DNA of 27,561 nt, from NCBI GenBank assembly GCA_036507075.1, contig DASXQR010000039.1:1-27561 (forward strand), written 5' to 3'. This document shows, in pieces, positions 15,001-24,000 of the stretch. The DNA comes from Acidobacteriota bacterium. Its GTDB lineage: Bacteria > Acidobacteriota > UBA6911 > JACQSX01. Each line of letters opens with the position of its first letter. Positions within the stretch are counted from its first letter, which is position 1. Made by a program: the position numbers.

Positions 15001-18000
15001 TTTGTCATTGATTATCCAAACGATCTGTTTGATTGCTCCGCTTTAATCAATGAATTCGGCGACGCCTTTCTTCCTGCCCTGGGCTTTCTGCCGCGGCCGG
15101 CAACGCGGCGTTATCGCATCGCATGTGATTATCGGCCCCGGCCGTCCAAAGAAGGTCCGTTTCGCTGGGTGCGCCAGCAATTCTTTGAGAATTCTTTTGA
15201 GCGGGTCGATAACCTGAAAGGCGTGACCGAGTCCTGGCGGTTCTTTATGGCCCCGGTGAACATTCGGACCGAATCGGGAGAGCATTTGGAATTCAACTGG
15301 GCTCCGCAGTACGAGTTTTTGCCGGAACCGTTTGATATCGGCGGTGTGACGCTTGCGCCAGGCGCATACCGGTTTACGCGTTGGCGGCTGGAAGCACAAA
15401 GCAGTGAGCATCGACGCATTCAGGCAGGGTCCACGACGTGGTTCGGATCTTTTTACGATGGAAATCTGACGCAGTGGGAAAATTACATCCGCTGGAATTC
15501 GCAAAGCGGTCAGTGGCAGATCGGGGTCAGCACGGAAAATAATTTCGGTCATTTGAAGCAGGGAAATTTCGCCCAACGATTATGGCAGCTCCAGTCGGCC
15601 TTCGCGCTTAATTCAAATCTGATGCTGACCAGTTTCATTCAGTACGACACTGAGTCGCAAAAAGTCGGCAGCAATACACGCCTTCGATGGACGCTCAAGC
15701 CCGGCAATGATCTCTTTATAATCTGGAATCGCGGCTGGCAAAGACTGATTACCAGTCGCGACGAACTGAGCCTGGTTCCCGATTCGGAGCTTTTGGCGAT
15801 CAAATTGAGATGGACCTTCAGAAGGTGACCATCGAGTCAAATACGATCGTTGAACCGACCGAAATTAAGGACCAACTTCCTTCGTCCCGTACGGCAATTG
15901 CGGCAATGGCGGGGGGTGTAATGTATGCGCTGATTCGACACGGCACTTGGTTCAAGTTTTGATAATGACATTTCTACTTGCTATTCATTGCAAAATTGAT
16001 ATGCTTCGCGTCAAATTTTGTGTGTTTAAGGTTTTTCCGGGCCACAAAGCATCTCGCAGTCTGAACGAATGACGGGAAGCGAATTGCGTGGATGGGAATC
16101 TAAATCAACCGACACGACGGAGAGGGACGCTCTCCGATGCCTTGAGTGCGTCGTATTTCTTTTTTGCCGCTGTTTGAAACCGGGGCAGCGCCGTTACGGA
16201 AACGCTATTAAGTTTGTCTTCCAAACTTCGGTTCTCCTATCTTTATCTTTACTAGCAGGCTCTCATGCAGCCGCCTCGGCTGTTCAAGCAGTTTCCCAGG
16301 CAAAAACGTCGGATTATAAGGAAACCTGGGAGAAATGCGCCCAATGTCATGATGACACGGTGAAGGATTTTTCGCGCGACGTTCACGGCAAGAGCGCCAG
16401 ATTTCTTTCCGGATCACGAGCAGCCAACTGCGAAACGTGTCACGGCGATCCAACCAAGCACGTGGAAACTACGGAAGCCAAAGATATCCTCAATCCCGCC
16501 AAGATGAAGCCTTACGTGGCAAACGAGACTTGCCTGAGTTGCCACGCAAGGGACCAGCGACGAATGTTCTGGCACAGCAGCCAACATGAAAACAACAAAA
16601 TGAGTTGTTTGAGTTGTCACAGGATGCACCATTCCCCGTCTGAGGAAAAAAAGCTGGCGAAGCGTACCGAAGAAGAATTATGTCTCTCCTGCCATACCGA
16701 CAAACGAAAAGCGTTCTACCAGCGCTCCACCCACTTGTTTCGCACTGAGCACTGGAATATGAAGGTTGGGTGTGCATCCTGCCACAACCCCCACGGGGGT
16801 GAGGCGGGAAGGATGCTTGTGTCGCGCTCGGTCAATGATCTTTGTTATACCTGCCATGCCGAAAAACGCGGCCCCTTTCTCTGGGAACATGCGCCGGTTC
16901 GCGAAAACTGTCTCAACTGTCACTCGCCCCATGGAACGAGCAATCCCAAGCTGCTCACAAACCGAGTTCACCTGATATGCCAGCAGTGCCATATTCATAT
17001 GTTGCCGCGCCATCAGACCGCCGCCGGAAAACCTCTGGACATATGGTCCATAAATCGCGGCTGTGCCAATTGCCACTCCCAGGTCCATGGCTCAAATCAT
17101 CCGTCGGGCAGAACTTTTACGCGCTAAGAGGACCAGATGAGATCCGACCAGACAGACAGACCCACACCGATTCTTCGCGTCGATCTCGCTTTCTTGGCTT
17201 GCGTCGTCTCAGCGCTCATGTTTACTCACGTTTGGTGCCAGACGCAACAGAACGACACGACGCAAACACAGCAAAAGAACGCCGAGGCAAAAAAACCGCC
17301 CCTCCTGCTGCAGAGAATTCAGGCAAGCTTTGAAATCGGCGGCCAGACTCGTGATACCCAGGGAGGCCATCCCGCTAAGTTCCAGGAAGCGCGAGATGTT
17401 CCAAAAGGATTGTATGTCCAGAAATTGAGCCTGGACTTCCGCTCAGACGATTCTCCTTACTTTGTCTCATTGAGAGGATTTGAGATTCGCGAGCTTGACC
17501 AGCGTTTCAAGGTGGACGTAGGGAGGTTTGGAAAATATCGAACTCAATTTGTCTGGGACCAGGTCCCTCATTCCTTCGGCAGCGGAAGATACTTTTTTCA
17601 GAGGACGGCGCCGGGGATCTATCAAGTCAGCCCGACGCTGCGAGCGCGCCTGCAGGCCGCCACAACACCAGACACGGCGCCAATCGCTCCAAACGCCGAA
17701 TTGCCCACGATAGTTCGCCAGGAGCTGCAGACTGCAGCAATCACCGATGTGCGGCTCCGCCGGGATCAAGCCCTGTTAAAGCAGGACTACTGGGCCTCGG
17801 ATAATGTGGAATTACATTTTCAGTTGAGCCGGCTGCGCAATCGTGGATCGCGGCCCATCTCCGCGGGCACATTTGTCCGGCGACCCGGCCCTGCTCCCGC
17901 TCGGGACGGTTTGTGGGAGGGGCTGGGCCAGGAGCTGCCGGAGCCTATCGACCATCGGACGACGGATTTAAATTTGGGCACGCAGTTTTCGGGCAAACAA

Positions 18001-21000: not shown

Positions 21001-24000
21001 TGCCATGGCAATCCTGGCAGCCCATGCGTCCCGAATAAATCTCCGCAAGAGCGTCCGTGTGTTCGCTCACCGATCGAAATTTTACCGATTGGGCGTGGCA
21101 TTTCAGGCAATCTCCGTTCTCGTAAGGATGGCGCATCTTGATCGGTAATTTGTAGGTGCGGGTATAGTATTTGTATACGTCGACCATCCCCGCAGTTTTT
21201 GCCTCAAAGGTGCCGAATAAGCCGTAAGAAGTATGGCACTCGTAGCACTGGTTGCTGTGAATGTATTGATTTCGATAATGCATGGCAGCGAGGCCTTCGC
21301 TCTTTGAGTTTTTCATATCCTCTACGTACGCCTTCATGGTCAGATGGCACGTTGCGCAAAACTCAACGCGCTCGGCGCGCGTAAAGACAAGAAGCATCCC
21401 GGTTGACACAGCCAACAACGGCACCATCACGACAGAAGTGATGACCAGGCTTTTAAAGAAAGGCCCAAAAAACCGCCCTCGGATGACCTGAAACAAAGAA
21501 AGAAGCACCAGACCCAGGCCGATCACCAGTACCCACACGAGAAACCGGGATGCGAGGTATTCGACAGGATCGTGCTGGAAAGATTCCTTCGGATCCTGGG
21601 CATATCCCGGAACTCCAGCAAGAATGGCGAACAGAGCTGCGCGCAGGGCGGACTTCAGCCCGGTCATTGGTGTTCTCCCGTTAAGAATTGGGGCAATAAT
21701 CGTCTGTTTACGATTAAGAGTCAAGAGACGTTACGGGTACGCGATTTTGTATCGTAATTTTGCCTGGGCCGGTCATAAATGCCATTTGTTTTCATCTTGA
21801 GACGTGAGGCCGCGGAGGTTATTCTCATTAAACAGTCGTGTTCGAAGCGGACTTTGCTTAGCCTTCAGTTGAACGATGCCGAAAAGACAAATAATCGTTA
21901 TCGGGGGCGGTTTTGCGGGAGTCTTCACCGCCATGGAGCTGGAGAAGCGCCTTGGGCCTGAGGAGGCAAACATTTGTCTTGTGAACCGGGAAAATTACTT
22001 CGTTTATCAACCCATGTTGCCCGAAATCATTTCAGGTTCCATCGGTTTGACCGACACCGTTGTGCCTATTCGCGCGCTTTGCCCGCGCACCAATCTGGTA
22101 ATGCGTGAGGTTGAAGAGATCGATCTAAAGGCAAGAACCGTCACCGTCAGCCCTGGATTCCATCCGAGAGCAATAGTCATTCACTACGATCACCTGATAA
22201 TTGCGATGGGCGCGGTTCCTGATTTCGGCGGCCTCCCGGGTTTTGTAGAGCATGTAATGCCGTTTCGCACGCTCACGGACGCGCTCAGGCTGAGAAATCG
22301 GGTTATCTCCGCTCTGGAAGAAGCGGACATTGAACGCGATCCTGATCTGCGCCGCAAATTGCTCACGTTTGTCGTTGCCGGGGCTGGCTTCTCGGGTGTC
22401 GAAGTTATCGCCGAGCTGAATGATTTTGTAACGGGTGTTACACGGCATTTTCGGAATATTATTCCCCACCAGGTCCATTGTGTACTGGTCCACTCAGGCA
22501 AGCGGATTTTGCCCGAGATGGTTGAAAGCCTTGGCGTCTTTGCTCAAGATCAGCTCATCCGTCGCGGCGTGGAGATTATCCTTAATGACCGCCTTATAGC
22601 TGTGACTTCGGAAAAGGCCATTCTGAAATCAGGGCTGGAGATTCCCGCAAAGACGATTGTCTCTACGGTGCCCTCCACGATTGATCCGGTGCTCAAAGAA
22701 CTTGACTGTCCCAAGGAAACGGGACGTTTGGCTGTGGACAAGTACCTGCAACTAAGAGGATATGAAGGAGAAGTTTGGGCATTGGGAGACTGTGCCTTGG
22801 TCCCAACTGCTTCGGGCGGCTCCGCACCTCCCACCGCGCAGCATGCGGTGCGGGAAGCGAGAACAGCCGCAGAAAACATCTGCGCGCACATCCGAGGCCG
22901 GCCTTCACAGCCATTTGATTTTGAGGAGCTGGGGCGGCTCGGCTCGCTTGGACACCACTCGGCAGTCGCGGAGGTAATGGGTGTCCGGATTTCCGGGCTT
23001 GTCGCGTGGCTGTTGTGGAGATTTGTTTACCTGGCTAAAATGCCCGGACTTAATAGAAAGGTCCGTGTAGCCGCCGATTGGCTGATAGGGTTGGTGTTCC
23101 CGCCGGACTTCGTTCAATTGAAGATTGGAAGACCTCCGGGCATTACCGAACAGCACGTCGAACCGGGAGAGATTGTTTTTTATCAGGGCGACGTTGGCGA
23201 CAGTGTCTATGTGATTCAACAAGGTCAATGCGAGGTCCTGCGCACCCGAAAAGGAGTCCAGCAAAGAGTCGCCGTTTTGGGAACGGGCGATTACTTTGGC
23301 GAGATGGCAGTGCTTCACGACGCTTCGCGAAACGCCACCATTCGCGCGCTCTCGCCGTTGGATCTTCTGGTAATCGCCAAGAGAGACTTTCAGAAGCTGA
23401 AATCAAATATTCCGGCTTTCGCGAAAATATTCGATGACGTCGCGACCAAGAGAGCCGTGGCGGACGAAGCCGAAAAAGCGATGGGTGCCGCCAGTCCGAA
23501 CTCACCAACCAGCTTGACACCATAGCAAAAGGCCAGAACACACAATATGAGCAATTCGAACTTACGCGGCCCTGCCTTCGGACATCCTGGAATACCTCCG
23601 CGATGGACCTCAAGCTCCAAAGACGCGGTGGCTACTGCCTATTCCAGCGCCAGCCGAATCTGGTTCACTCTTTCGCACGGCATTCTCAACGAGGTCTACT
23701 ATCCCACGATTGATCGACCTCAGATCCGTGATTTGCAATTCCTGATCACTGACGGTGAGACTTTCTTTCATGAAGAGAGACGGGACCTGGAGTATAAAGT
23801 GAACCGCATCGAGCGGGACACTCTCGGGTACCGTATTGTCAACGCCGATCCGCAGGGACGGTATCGCATTACAAAGGAAATAATCTGTGACCCGCATGAT
23901 CCCTGCATCTTGATCCGGGTGCGGCTTGACGCCGAGGAGGGTTGGCGGAATCGCATTCAGCTTTACGCTTTACTGGCGCCTCATCTGGAAGGAAGCGGGT

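Follow-up and report, generated by a model that had tools for sequence, protein, structure and literature searches.

A predicted type II NAD(P)H dehydrogenase with a C-terminal cyclic-nucleotide-binding domain, encoded beside cytochrome genes in an Acidobacteriota genome

Here we describe a 549-aa protein that, judged by its sequence, is an NDH-2-type flavoenzyme followed by a C-terminal cyclic-nucleotide (cNMP)-binding domain, and that belongs to a conserved clade found mostly in Acidobacteriota. Its gene lies in a stretch of 27,561 nucleotides (contig DASXQR010000039.1, positions 1 to 27,561; the window hereafter) together with cytochrome and porin genes (Table 1). A genome-wide survey's note had reported this architecture, with a second cNMP-binding protein, a NapC/NirT-type cytochrome, a decahaem MtrA/DmsE and an MtrB/PioB porin as neighbours. 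Pfam and the PDB alignment bear out the fusion, and all four neighbours are in place according to Pfam, NCBIfam and CxxCH counts. Between the MtrB gene and that of the second sensor protein we also found a monohaem cytochrome c gene, which was absent from that note. The note held direct cyclic-nucleotide control of a respiratory dehydrogenase to be undescribed as far as its searches showed, and our literature search found no paper on an NDH-2/cNMP-binding fusion or on a sensor-controlled respiratory quinone reductase. The finding suggests that in a soil acidobacterium one second messenger may switch a whole electron-transport branch. The reading we prefer, at about an even chance, is a cNMP-gated branch from NAD(P)H through quinone to cytochrome c, which here feeds MtrAB.

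Table 1. Features of the window, with the evidence for each.
Feature	Coordinates	Strand	Evidence
MtrA/DmsE-family decahaem cytochrome	16069..17127	+	10 CxxCH; TIGR03508 (NCBIfam DmsE-family decahaem) 239 bits, cut-off 192
MtrB/PioB-family outer-membrane porin, 843 aa, C-terminal Phe	17137..19668	+	Pfam MtrB_PioB 268 bits
Monohaem class-I-type cytochrome c, 118 aa	19889..20245	-	Pfam Cytochrom_C and Cytochrome_CBB3; one CxxCH
Membrane-anchored cyclic-nucleotide-binding (2TM-sensor) protein, 175 aa	20400..20927	-	Pfam cNMP_binding 89 bits
NapC/NirT-like tetrahaem cytochrome	20963..21667	-	Pfam, alignment, haem count, hydropathy
NDH-2-type NAD(P)H:quinone oxidoreductase with C-terminal cNMP-binding domain (predicted), 549 aa	21876..23525	+	Pfam, PDB alignment, AlphaFold2 model
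Codon of His206, at the position of Glu198 in C. thermarum NDH-2	22491..22493	+	HMMER alignment
NDH2_C membrane-anchor region, residues 353-407	22932..23096	+	Pfam NDH2_C; DSSP on model
Cyclic-nucleotide-binding domain	23142..23489	+	Pfam, PDB matches, model
Phosphate-binding cassette FGEMAVLHDASRNAT, residues 474-488	23295..23339	+	Alignment with PKG sites
GH15 glucodextranase/glucoamylase-like gene	23547..25943	+	Pfam Glucodextran_N and Glyco_hydro_15

In the fusion, Pfam recognises Pyr_redox_2 (residues 5-328, E 1.8e-36), NDH2_C (residues 353-405, 39.5 bits, cut-off 27.7) and cNMP_binding (residues 426-508, 80.4 bits, cut-off 27.5), and solved NDH-2 structures align with residues 1-405 (9mqy, E 1.3e-42; 4nwz, E 2.3e-42). 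Both GxGxxG motifs are present in 74/74 homologues. The AlphaFold2 model (mean pLDDT 75.8, pTM 0.64) places two predicted amphipathic helices, 375-388 and 392-407, in the anchor region. Canonical NDH-2 bears Glu198 or Asp where the fusion bears His206 (VLVHSG against INVEAA in 4nwz and ILLDAA in 9mqy); among 74 fused homologues this position is His in 69 and Gln in 5. The His occurs in our tree's unfused sister group as well and is not tied to the sensor. We know of no assays of a His-bearing NDH-2. According to the available part of PMC5220320, Glu/Asp at the Glu198 position explains NADH-only activity, and a Glu to Gln change moves an Agrobacterium NDH-2 towards NADPH. Judging from this residue, the substrate of the fusion may be NADPH instead of, or besides, NADH. 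In 21 of the best 80 of 170 loci, at least two genes among glucokinase, G6PD, 6PGD, transaldolase-PGI, RpiB and transketolase accompany the fusion, which in L036 and L041 lies between a cytochrome operon and the pentose-phosphate genes. In the window, the GH15 gene starts 21 nt downstream of the fusion and may be co-transcribed with it; this arrangement is not conserved, a GH15 gene being found near the fusion in none of the best 80 loci.

The sensor domain is modelled as a beta-roll (423-501) with C-terminal helices (502-538), behind a linker (409-421) with pLDDT below 50. Its PDB matches are domains of PKG, PKA, Epac, SthK and Bd1971 (E 1e-28 to 1e-12), and the top ones are genuine cAMP/cGMP sites. 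Its cassette lines up with FGE.AL....R[ST]A of the PKG sites. The survey's note had left the binding residues unchecked; the cassette is intact, as F474, G475, E476, A478 and R485 are kept in 67/67 homologues (74 less the 7 truncated at the end of a contig). Directly after the cassette Arg, Asn stands in 57 of these, Gly in 7 and Ser in 3, where well-studied sites have Ser, Thr or Ala, and the ligand preference is therefore not readable from it. The genome contains three class III cyclase genes, and it can, as predicted from these genes, produce a cyclic-nucleotide ligand; in 11 of the best 80 loci the fusion has a cyclase-domain gene no more than 10 kb away, in several arrangements. We infer that the ligand is a cyclic nucleotide and that its binding alters the activity of the fusion. 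In the model the sensor is not confidently packed onto the enzyme, so the coupling mechanism is a guess: binding might shift the last amphipathic helix, only ~18 residues ahead of the beta-roll.

The fusion was found in other genomes too. Using residues 395-549 as query we obtained 49 other protein clusters (P0005-P0053, E <= 2.6e-36) with PF07992, PF22366 and PF00027, 48 of them of 518-575 aa and one a 307-aa piece, which approximately reproduces the 46 same-fusion clusters of the survey's note. A quick tree separates the fused proteins as one side of a branch with an SH-aLRT of 97. Among genome contigs 170 relatives were found, and the best 80 loci were fetched; the fusion is intact through the sensor in 76 of these 80, and in the other 4 the contig ends first. 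In 24 of the best 80 loci the fusion adjoins a trio of NapC-like cytochrome, 2TM-sensor protein and cytochrome c, either divergent from it or in one co-directional operon; it is the final gene of a cytochrome operon in L021, L039, L042 and L055, and the first in L049, L075 and L080. The cytochrome c homologue adjoins the fusion in 35 of the best 80 loci. Kin have gene order in common, and the 24 trio loci and 21 pentose-phosphate loci fall in few tree clades and are not independent events. Neither the trio nor at least two pentose-phosphate genes were found in 37 of the best 80 loci, some with short flanks, and the fusion clearly also works outside the cytochrome module.

The NapC-like cytochrome matches the NapC/NirT N-terminal region (Pfam, 35.4 bits, cut-off 24.1) and reaches 35 bits with NCBIfam NrfH, under the cut-off of 134. 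This modest Pfam match points to a putative quinol-dehydrogenase role. The longest reading frame extends to 21724 (-), the ATG at 21667 being the likely start. The protein shows a signal peptide, a conserved FQxDPVE motif, a hydrophobic two-helix hairpin and then four CxxCH, each of these four being invariant in the alignment; a search of the PDB with the family profile found no solved structure. Within a sample of 201 genomes of the phylum, close orthologues (at least 378 bits) occur only in G000 and G145, both adjoining the fusion. Also, Table 1 of a 2018 survey (PMC6295460, available in part) gives 0 CymA homologues in Acidobacteria. In the 2TM-sensor protein, two transmembrane helices within residues 4-58 precede a cytoplasmic sensor domain. 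Among the paralogues of the NDH-2 sensor in this genome it is the nearest (41% identity), and its cassette reads YFGE..L....PRNAT, where G118, E119, R128, N129, A130 and T131 are invariant. Judged by ORF coordinates, the stop of the NapC-like gene and the start of the sensor-protein gene overlap by 4 nt in at least six loci. A complex model of both proteins supports their binding through transmembrane hairpin against transmembrane hairpin. It scored 0.65, against 0.01 for the best of three controls whose membrane nature is not stated, and such models may favour hydrophobic-helix packing generally. Of 157 solved complexes, 116 attained this mark, as did 2 of 215 mismatched pairs; this calibration holds only roughly here, as we used our own alignments and four riding haems. 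The runs of the model share at least 87% of their contacts, with a partner pLDDT of at least 77.

The MtrA and MtrB genes are 9 nt apart. The match of L001 to MtrA begins at residue 31, and the true MtrA start is probably downstream of 16069. The MtrB protein, the single MtrB_PioB match of the whole genome, lies well above the Pfam cut-off and at 199 bits below the NCBIfam cut-off of 240. The survey's note had linked the fusion to MtrAB by adjacency; this link is confined to our genome and its nearest relative, as both genes lie near the fusion in 1 of the best 80 of 170 loci (L001), so the tie may be recent or accidental. Its broader idea, that a messenger gates the entry of electrons to a chain of multihaem export proteins, stands in an altered form, in which the trio is the recurrent partner and the usual conduit is another one. 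Thus, 20 of the 24 trio loci (among the best 80) also encode a 5-haem lipoprotein and a 15-haem cytochrome, together with a TPR protein and a further protein whose model is a beta-barrel, often in one eight-gene operon with trio and fusion. A conduit is present in 21 of the 24, 20 of this kind and MtrAB in L001, and the window also has MtrAB. In 4 of the best 80 loci, genes for a NuoEF-like protein and for an Fe-S protein carrying two sensor domains occur no more than 10 kb from the fusion.

In the branch that we propose, the monotopic NDH-2-type fusion, with its sensor directly after the anchor helices, would pass electrons from NAD(P)H to the membrane quinone, and the NapC-like tetrahaem cytochrome would re-oxidise the quinol on the periplasmic side. 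The 2TM-sensor protein would be the small membrane subunit of this cytochrome, with its sensor facing the cytoplasm, and the monohaem cytochrome c, which has an N-terminal hydrophobic anchor or signal, the onward carrier. The next acceptor would most likely be the adjacent MtrA/MtrB here, and the other porin and multihaem set in most relatives. This would amount to a non-proton-pumping shunt from sugar-derived NAD(P)H to cytochromes of the periplasm and the cell surface; with one sensor on the fusion and another on the probable subunit of the NapC-like cytochrome, one cyclic nucleotide would open or close both of its ends. We infer the outward direction of the flow and, likewise, the sign of the cNMP control.

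Electrons could also move the other way, mto-type Fe(II) oxidation delivering outside electrons to the quinone pool while the sensor turns NDH-2 off or on and competing inputs are avoided. In the available part of PMC6295460, mtoA-mtoB-mtoD clusters come with a quinone-active cytochrome of the inner membrane, and a monohaem cytochrome c gene is at the matching place in the window. MtrAB together with a monohaem c and a NapC-type protein is an mto-type make-up, and no MtrC-like extracellular decahaem gene was seen beside MtrAB within the window. However, NDH-2 enzymes pump no protons and therefore are not drivable backwards to NAD(P)H, and an operon shared with cytochromes (e.g. L021, L049) is therefore easier explained by outward flow. 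The linkage to sugar-oxidising genes described above also points to an organic donor, and we consider reverse flow unlikely.

A rather unlikely alternative, which we rate above reverse flow, has no extracellular role: the fusion would start a low-coupling NAD(P)H-to-cytochrome-c bypass of bc1/ACIII that feeds ordinary terminal oxidases or periplasmic reductases, with the porin-cytochrome genes merely in the same respiratory island. In this sense, 11 loci have cytochrome c alone with the fusion, lacking both the NapC-like gene and a multihaem set, and all are of the pentose-phosphate type; the only PDB matches of this cytochrome are the cytochrome c domains of the cbb3 oxidase subunit CcoP; and 3 of the 24 trio loci (L002, L047, L052) have no conduit within 10 kb. 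The porin and multihaem set of the other 21, and MtrAB in the window itself, speak against it, as do the trio and conduit genes often forming one operon with short gaps, and the attachment of the same trio to two unrelated conduit kinds. It is least probable, in our view, that the C-terminal domain has kept its cNMP-type fold but lost the sensing of cyclic nucleotides, and would bind another small molecule or act only in oligomerisation or in docking to the 2TM-sensor protein. Proteins with the CRP/FNR-type fold are known that bind other ligands, and both the Asn after the cassette Arg and the model without confident inter-domain contact would fit. But 67/67 fusions and 17/17 2TM-sensor proteins retain the cassette's Gly-Glu and Arg-x-Ala, and the true cAMP/cGMP sites among the best PDB matches and the nearby cyclase genes also argue against this reading.

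Several known systems share parts of this arrangement. The mtoA-mtoB-mtoD clusters of Fe(II) oxidisers and the Shewanella MtrCAB likewise contain an MtrA-type decahaem cytochrome and an MtrB/PioB porin, and the former, in the available part of PMC6295460, also a monohaem cytochrome c and an inner-membrane multihaem cytochrome; in contrast, the cluster described here comes with an NDH-2 and two cNMP sensors, and no MtrC was seen in the window. PtdE of the ptdABCDEFG putative porin-cytochrome system, whose function is given as unknown in the available part of bioRxiv 10.1101/2023.11.21.568154, is a cytoplasmic electron-input protein with a cNMP-binding domain. A PtdE-like protein with such a domain is encoded in the C17 operon of this genome; the survey's note had two cNMP domains in its Fe-S subunit, a remark borne out by the three PF00027 matches that we found in one 731-aa frame at C17:34998-35786. 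In PtdE and C17 the sensor is joined to an Fe-S protein, whereas here it is joined to a quinone-reducing flavoenzyme. The NapC/NirT quinol dehydrogenases (NrfH, CymA, TorC) are, like the NapC-like protein, membrane-anchored and tetrahaem, with Cytochrom_NNT over the cut-off, and placed between a quinone-reducing enzyme and periplasmic cytochromes. They have one anchor helix, whereas the very divergent NapC-like protein has a signal peptide, a two-helix hairpin and a predicted sensor-bearing partner.

The Bd1971 EAL phosphodiesterase, the SthK channel and the PKA/PKG regulatory domains have the same sensor fold and cassette, and in them a fused sensor governs the attached effector, which here would be a respiratory quinone reductase. 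Canonical NDH-2 (Caldalkalibacillus thermarum 4nwz; 9mqy, 'NADH:ubiquinone reductase (non-electrogenic)') shares with the fusion two Rossmann domains with GxGxxG and the C-terminal amphipathic helix pair, the ~140 additional residues of the fusion being the cNMP-binding domain. At the AQxAxQ motif (PMC5299459, available in part) the fusion reads AQHAVR, with Q322 in 74/74 and R326 in 73/74 homologues. By analogy, its closest functional counterpart is the Ca2+-dependent NDH-2 with an EF-hand, for example the external NADPH dehydrogenase of Neurospora crassa, likewise an NDH-2 with a built-in second-messenger sensor. In the available part of PMC5299459 the EF-hand insertion is proposed as a calcium-dependent regulator of NDH-2 activity, citing Melo 2001, a paper with an NADPH dehydrogenase in its title. 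These are eukaryotic enzymes with Ca2+ as messenger and a different sensor fold, inserted after the GD motif, whereas the sensor of the fusion is a C-terminal domain.

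The genes in this window outline a module in which an NDH-2 fused to a C-terminal cNMP-binding domain is accompanied by a trio: a NapC-like tetrahaem cytochrome, a small protein with two hydrophobic helices and its own cNMP-binding domain (the 2TM-sensor protein) and a monohaem cytochrome c (cytochrome c118). The ORF list and Pfam place every gene that the genome-wide survey's note had named where the note had put it. The most economical picture of the module is a short, non-pumping electron-transport branch.

Features of the window, with strand and the support for each assignment
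Feature	Position	Strand	Support and remarks
NDH-2/cNMP fusion, 549 aa	21876-23525	+	Pfam: Pyr_redox_2 residues 5-328, NDH2_C 353-405, cNMP_binding 426-508
NapC/NirT-like cytochrome, 4 CxxCH	20963-21724, likely start 21667	-	Pfam; upstream of fusion
2TM-sensor protein, 175 aa, two hydrophobic helices + cNMP-binding domain	20400-20927	-	Pfam
Monohaem cytochrome c, 118 aa	19889-20245	-	absent from the survey's note
Decahaem MtrA/DmsE-type cytochrome, 10 CxxCH	16069-17127	+	TIGR03508, 239 bits, above cut-off
5' part of the MtrA ORF	16069-16250	+	first ~45 residues unlike a signal peptide; signal-like stretch from about residue 50
MtrB/PioB porin	17137-19668	+	Pfam MtrB_PioB, 268 bits
GH15 glucodextranase-like gene	begins 21 nt past fusion		Pfam
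727-aa DUF5916-like protein	13645-15828	+	weak DUF5916 match (32.8 bits); directly upstream of MtrA
201-aa ORF	11863-12468	-	matches only positions 840-1019 (last 180) of the 1021-position AcrB/AcrD/AcrF profile

Residues 1-405 of the fusion align end to end with solved NDH-2 (E 1.3e-42 for 9mqy, whose alignment ends at 405, and 2.3e-42 for 4nwz), and the Pyr_redox_2 match has an E value of 1.8e-36 (Pfam). The GxGxxG motifs of both Rossmann domains (G10/G12/G15 and G169/G171/G174) are kept in 74 of 74 aligned homologous ORFs. The NDH2_C membrane-interacting domain scores 39.5 bits against a cut-off of 27.7, and the AlphaFold2 model, confident over the NDH-2 body, places two amphipathic helices at 375-388 and 392-407. 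The quinone-site motif of NDH-2, AQxAxQ in PMC5299459, reads A321-Q322-H323-A324-V325-R326 in the fusion, with Arg in place of the last Gln; Q322 and H323 are found in 74/74 homologues and R326 in 73/74. With the fusion as query no second NDH-2 was found in the genome, which holds two NuoH genes.

The position that excludes NADPH is His206 in the fusion, against Glu198 in the C. thermarum NDH-2 and Asp in 9mqy, and among the 74 members of the fused family it is His in 69, Gln in five and acidic in none. According to the parts of Blaza et al. (2017, PMC5220320) that deal with this position, its acidic residue accounts for poor NADPH use and is Glu or Asp in most NDH-2, and a change of Glu to Gln moved an Agrobacterium NDH-2 towards NADPH. 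The presence of His or Gln at 206 argues for a putative NADPH-accepting subtype and not against the NDH-2 fold. Of eight acidobacterial NDH-2 that belong neither to the fused clade nor to its sister group, seven carry Glu there and one Gln. Since the unfused sister group also has His at the equivalent position, the His trait predates the fusion.

The note's view that the same fusion occurs elsewhere was borne out, as 49 further clusters that combine these three Pfam families came up in a word-seeded search with residues 395-549. When one genome per species was scanned, 170 relatives were found. In the best 80 of these, 76 extend through the sensor and the other four end at a contig edge, and the loci are nearly all from Acidobacteriota (Bryobacterales, Terriglobia, Acidiferrales and Blastocatellia). 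Among 201 genomes sampled evenly across the phylum, a tally that takes in two genomes marked unpublished (G024 and G150), neither of which carries a claim of its own, an NDH-2-like match is present in 85, and the fused form is restricted to the genome of the window (G000), G145, G050, G081 and G087, plus a diverged form in G187. In a quick maximum-likelihood tree computed on the NDH-2 part, all fused proteins fall to the same side of one branch (SH-aLRT 97); the input comprised 61 fused ORFs, 520-575 aa long, plus 20 fetched homologues, after 13 truncated or over-extended ORFs of the 74 had been omitted. Two distant fusions, L088 (G187:C1:276000-278600) and L093 (G087:C26:28600-31200), with 42% and 36% identity, have the cassettes RSAT and RSAS and His at the position-206 equivalent, and the L093 protein has an additional C-terminal extension (680 aa); their placement is unsure because of long branches.

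The C-terminal 135 residues of the fusion match the true cAMP/cGMP sites of PKG, PKA, Epac, SthK and Bd1971 (E 1e-28 to 1e-12), and the cNMP_binding Pfam match spans profile positions 2-85 of 89. In the model, beta-roll strands lie at 423-501 and hinge/lid helices at 502-538, with pLDDT 58-84 through residue 510 and partly below 50 beyond. The phosphate-binding cassette FGEMAVLHDASRNAT aligns with FGE.AL....R[ST]A of the PKG sites, and the binding residues, which the note had left unchecked, proved to be invariant: F474, G475, E476, A478 and R485 occur in 67 of the 67 homologues that reach the region. Gly-Glu and Arg-x-Ala, which we take to contact the ribose and the phosphate respectively, are likewise kept in 17/17 2TM-sensor proteins as well as in the 67 fusions. 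The residue after the cassette Arg is Asn in 57 fused homologues, Gly in seven and Ser in three, so a preference for cAMP or cGMP is not readable from it. Three class III cyclase genes are present in the genome, along with 13 matches to PF00027 spread over about eleven frames, and the nearest paralogue there of the fusion's sensor is that of the adjoining 2TM-sensor protein, with 41% identity. Between the last amphipathic helix and the beta-roll's first strand lie about 18 residues, with pLDDT below 50. A mechanical coupling of ligand binding to the membrane/quinone face is plausible; the model has no confident domain-domain packing from which the mechanism could be read.

The NapC-like cytochrome has four CxxCH motifs that are invariant in 19 sequences and a hydrophobic stretch at residues 35-98. 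It passes the Cytochrom_NNT cut-off (35.4 bits vs 24.1) and falls far below that of the curated NrfH equivalog (35 bits vs 134), with about 20 bits for TorC; a profile of the family alignment (A3) hit no PDB chain at E <= 0.01. It may at best be a distant branch of the NapC/NirT (NrfH/CymA) quinol dehydrogenases. The 2TM-sensor gene always comes after the NapC-like gene, and in at least six loci (L021, L029, L030, L042, L044 and L057) the NapC-like stop overlaps the start of the sensor gene by 4 nt. A complex prediction for the two proteins scored 0.65, compared with 0.01 for the best of three controls; its runs share at least 87% of contacts with partner pLDDT of at least 77, and the predicted interface brings together two NapC-like helices (residues 41-108) and two helices of the sensor protein (1-53). 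The mark of 0.65 is attained by 116 of 157 solved complexes and by 2 of 215 mismatched pairs, in a calibration made without riding ligands or these alignments, our run having used A3, the alignment of 2TM-sensor proteins (A2) and four riding haems. Models of this kind may, moreover, readily pack hydrophobic helices together. For both reasons we consider that the prediction lends moderate support to the binding of the 2TM-sensor protein to the NapC-like cytochrome. The genome encodes a second, more distant NapC-like tetrahaem cytochrome on another contig (C83:77905-78462; 9900-10586, minus strand, of locus L101, G000:C83:68000-87999); it scores 181 bits against the A3 profile. Its neighbours are a histidine kinase with a protoglobin domain, response regulators and a sigma-54 activator; as neither a sensor protein nor an NDH-2 is encoded beside it, it has no bearing on the module.

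Proteins of the window and of the loci were compared by tblastn with all of the best 80 loci, and the locus ORFs were clustered. The trio accompanies the fusion in 24 of the 80, either divergently, as in the window, or as a co-directional operon in the order NapC-like cytochrome, sensor protein, cytochrome c, fusion. In the tree, the loci that contain it fall into three or more distinct supported groups: one of the window, L001 and L002, one clade of 17 rows, and one of L075 and L080. Close NapC-like orthologues in the 201-genome sample, whose tally again takes in G024 and G150, were found only in the genome of the window and in G145, and both adjoin the fusion. Neither the trio nor sugar genes are present in 37 of the 80 loci, some of which have short flanks. 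In the divergent gap of the window (21668-21875), a search for a CRP-type palindrome gave only one weak palindrome of 13 nt, and promoter-like and terminator-like sites numbered 4 vs 6.0 expected and 14 vs 12.8 expected, respectively, so that no usable signal emerged.

The tie to MtrAB, which the note had drawn from adjacency, did not hold as a conserved partnership: MtrA and MtrB lie beside the fusion in only one of the 80 loci, that of its nearest relative (L001), and GH15 in none. In the window itself the decahaem cytochrome directly precedes the porin with a gap of 9 nt, the arrangement of an MtrAB/MtoAB/PioAB conduit; the porin is the sole MtrB_PioB match in a whole-genome search and stays below the NCBIfam cut-off (199 vs 240 bits). 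The 727-aa DUF5916-like protein, 69% identical to the counterpart that adjoins MtrB in L001, may be an additional outer-membrane part of the MtrAB system. The true start codon of MtrA is probably downstream of 16069, and the L001 match to this ORF starts at residue 31. Contig positions 1-13600 hold unrelated housekeeping genes; the 201-aa ORF resembles the end of an efflux-pump gene that has been truncated, unless its start was mis-called.

Attached to 20 of the 24 trio loci is a set of four genes that encode a lipoprotein (about 723 aa, five CxxCH), a TPR protein, a protein of some 550 aa that begins with a signal peptide and matches no Pfam family, and a cytochrome (about 450 aa, 15 CxxCH). 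The model of the ~550-aa protein (mean pLDDT 55.9) contains more than 20 long strands, its consensus sequence ends in WKY, and its top Foldseek matches are all outer-membrane barrels (AlgE, MOMP, FimD; E from 4e-8, TM 0.25-0.35). The set looks like another porin-cytochrome system, as judged from this model. The PCC3 and PCC4 systems (He et al. 2017, PMC5566968) were rejected as its description, as that text has no NapC, cyclic nucleotide, Acidobacteria or TPR. No conduit was found within 10 kb at the trio loci L002, L047 and L052.

At least two of the genes for glucokinase, glucose-6-phosphate dehydrogenase (G6PD), 6-phosphogluconate dehydrogenase (6PGD), a transaldolase-PGI fusion, RpiB and transketolase lie beside the fusion in 21 of the 80 loci, and in 11 of these 21 the monohaem cytochrome c stands between transketolase and the fusion. 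Two loci (L036 and L041) present the full order: multihaem set, NapC-like cytochrome, sensor protein, cytochrome c, fusion, transketolase, RpiB, transaldolase-PGI, 6PGD and G6PD. As the oxidative pentose-phosphate pathway produces NADPH, this linkage agrees with what the His or Gln at position 206 suggests. In the window the sole sugar link is the GH15 gene, and the G6PD of the genome is on a different contig. In several pentose-phosphate loci (L014, L015, L017, L019, L070, L072 and others) the fusion is followed by genes for an EthD-domain protein and an M49 peptidase-like protein, and after these by genes for a PAS/response-regulator protein and a TPR protein. A third recurrent neighbourhood (L024-L027, L031-L033 and L037) has a metallo-beta-lactamase-fold gene directly upstream of the fusion and, converging on it, the gene of a 921-aa caspase-domain and TPR protein with a cyclase-domain match at its upstream end.

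A cyclase-domain gene is found within 10 kb of the fusion in 11 of the 80 loci, in varying arrangements; three Blastocatellia loci (L046, L051 and L065) have, in order, a class III cyclase, an ECF sigma factor, a zf-HC2 anti-sigma factor and the fusion. In four Bryobacterales loci (L073, L074, L076 and L078), the NDH-2 fusion lies a few kb from a NuoE-NuoF fusion gene and from an Fe-S protein of 803 aa that carries two cNMP-binding domains, so that NAD(P)H entry systems of two different kinds, each with sensors, stand side by side there. This two-sensor type of Fe-S protein, also encoded on contig C17 of the window genome, is named PtdE in a preprint (bioRxiv 10.1101/2023.11.21.568154).

In the electron-transport branch that we picture, the fusion would move electrons from NAD(P)H to quinone, the NapC-like complex would take them from quinol, and the monohaem cytochrome c may relay them to a periplasmic or outer-membrane multihaem system, MtrAB in the window. 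Cyclic-nucleotide sensors of one type would then sit at both the loading and the unloading of quinone. Four points of this picture are inferred: which ligand binds, in which sense it controls the flow, that NADPH is used, and which partner the cytochrome c has. Outward electron flow is favoured, because an NDH-2 cannot run in reverse and the fusion shares operons with cytochromes and sugar-oxidising genes. Inward flow remains a rival by analogy, since the MtrAB, cytochrome c and NapC-type make-up recalls the Fe(II)-oxidation clusters presented in PMC6295460. MtrAB adjoins the NDH-2/NapC-like module in the window and in L001, and 20 other loci join a different porin and multihaem set to the same module.

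We also put forward a wider and rather doubtful proposal, that a dedicated electron-export branch is gated at two points, an NADPH-accepting NDH-2 loading the quinone pool and the NapC-like cytochrome with its two-helix sensor subunit unloading it, both with a cyclic-nucleotide sensor of one kind. One messenger would in this way join the reducing power gained from sugars through glucokinase and the oxidative pentose-phosphate pathway to the porin-cytochrome conduits of the cell surface, directly and without transcription. If true, it would be the first respiratory segment known with an allosteric cAMP/cGMP switch at both entry and exit.

Bacterial respiratory chains are known to be controlled mostly through transcription and substrate supply. 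If the NDH-2 and the quinol dehydrogenase each read a cyclic nucleotide, they would constitute a fast post-translational switch on electron flow, which gene linkage connects to extracellular electron transfer in abundant soil Acidobacteriota and also to the disposal of NADPH from sugar oxidation. Since the family is large (170 relatives), one set of enzyme assays would annotate many genes now named only 'FAD-dependent oxidoreductase'. NDH-2 enzymes are studied as drug targets and as stand-ins for complex I, and a natural allosteric handle on them could have practical use.

The note had considered direct cyclic-nucleotide control of a respiratory dehydrogenase to be undescribed. In agreement, no paper on the joining of a cyclic-nucleotide sensor to an NDH-2 came up in a search with most subscription journals outside its reach, and a search for a fusion of thioredoxin reductase with a cyclic nucleotide-binding domain gave unrelated papers only. 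What is new in this analysis is the conservation of the trio, a predicted sensor subunit, another porin-cytochrome system as partner, a residue of the NADPH type and the linkage to pentose-phosphate genes. The closest parallel at the level of the system is the sensor-bearing Fe-S protein of ptd-type clusters, of unknown function according to the preprint (bioRxiv 10.1101/2023.11.21.568154). The enzymes nearest to the fusion are ordinary NDH-2; in function it comes closest to the EF-hand NDH-2 of fungi and plants, whose control by calcium is given as a proposal in PMC5299459.
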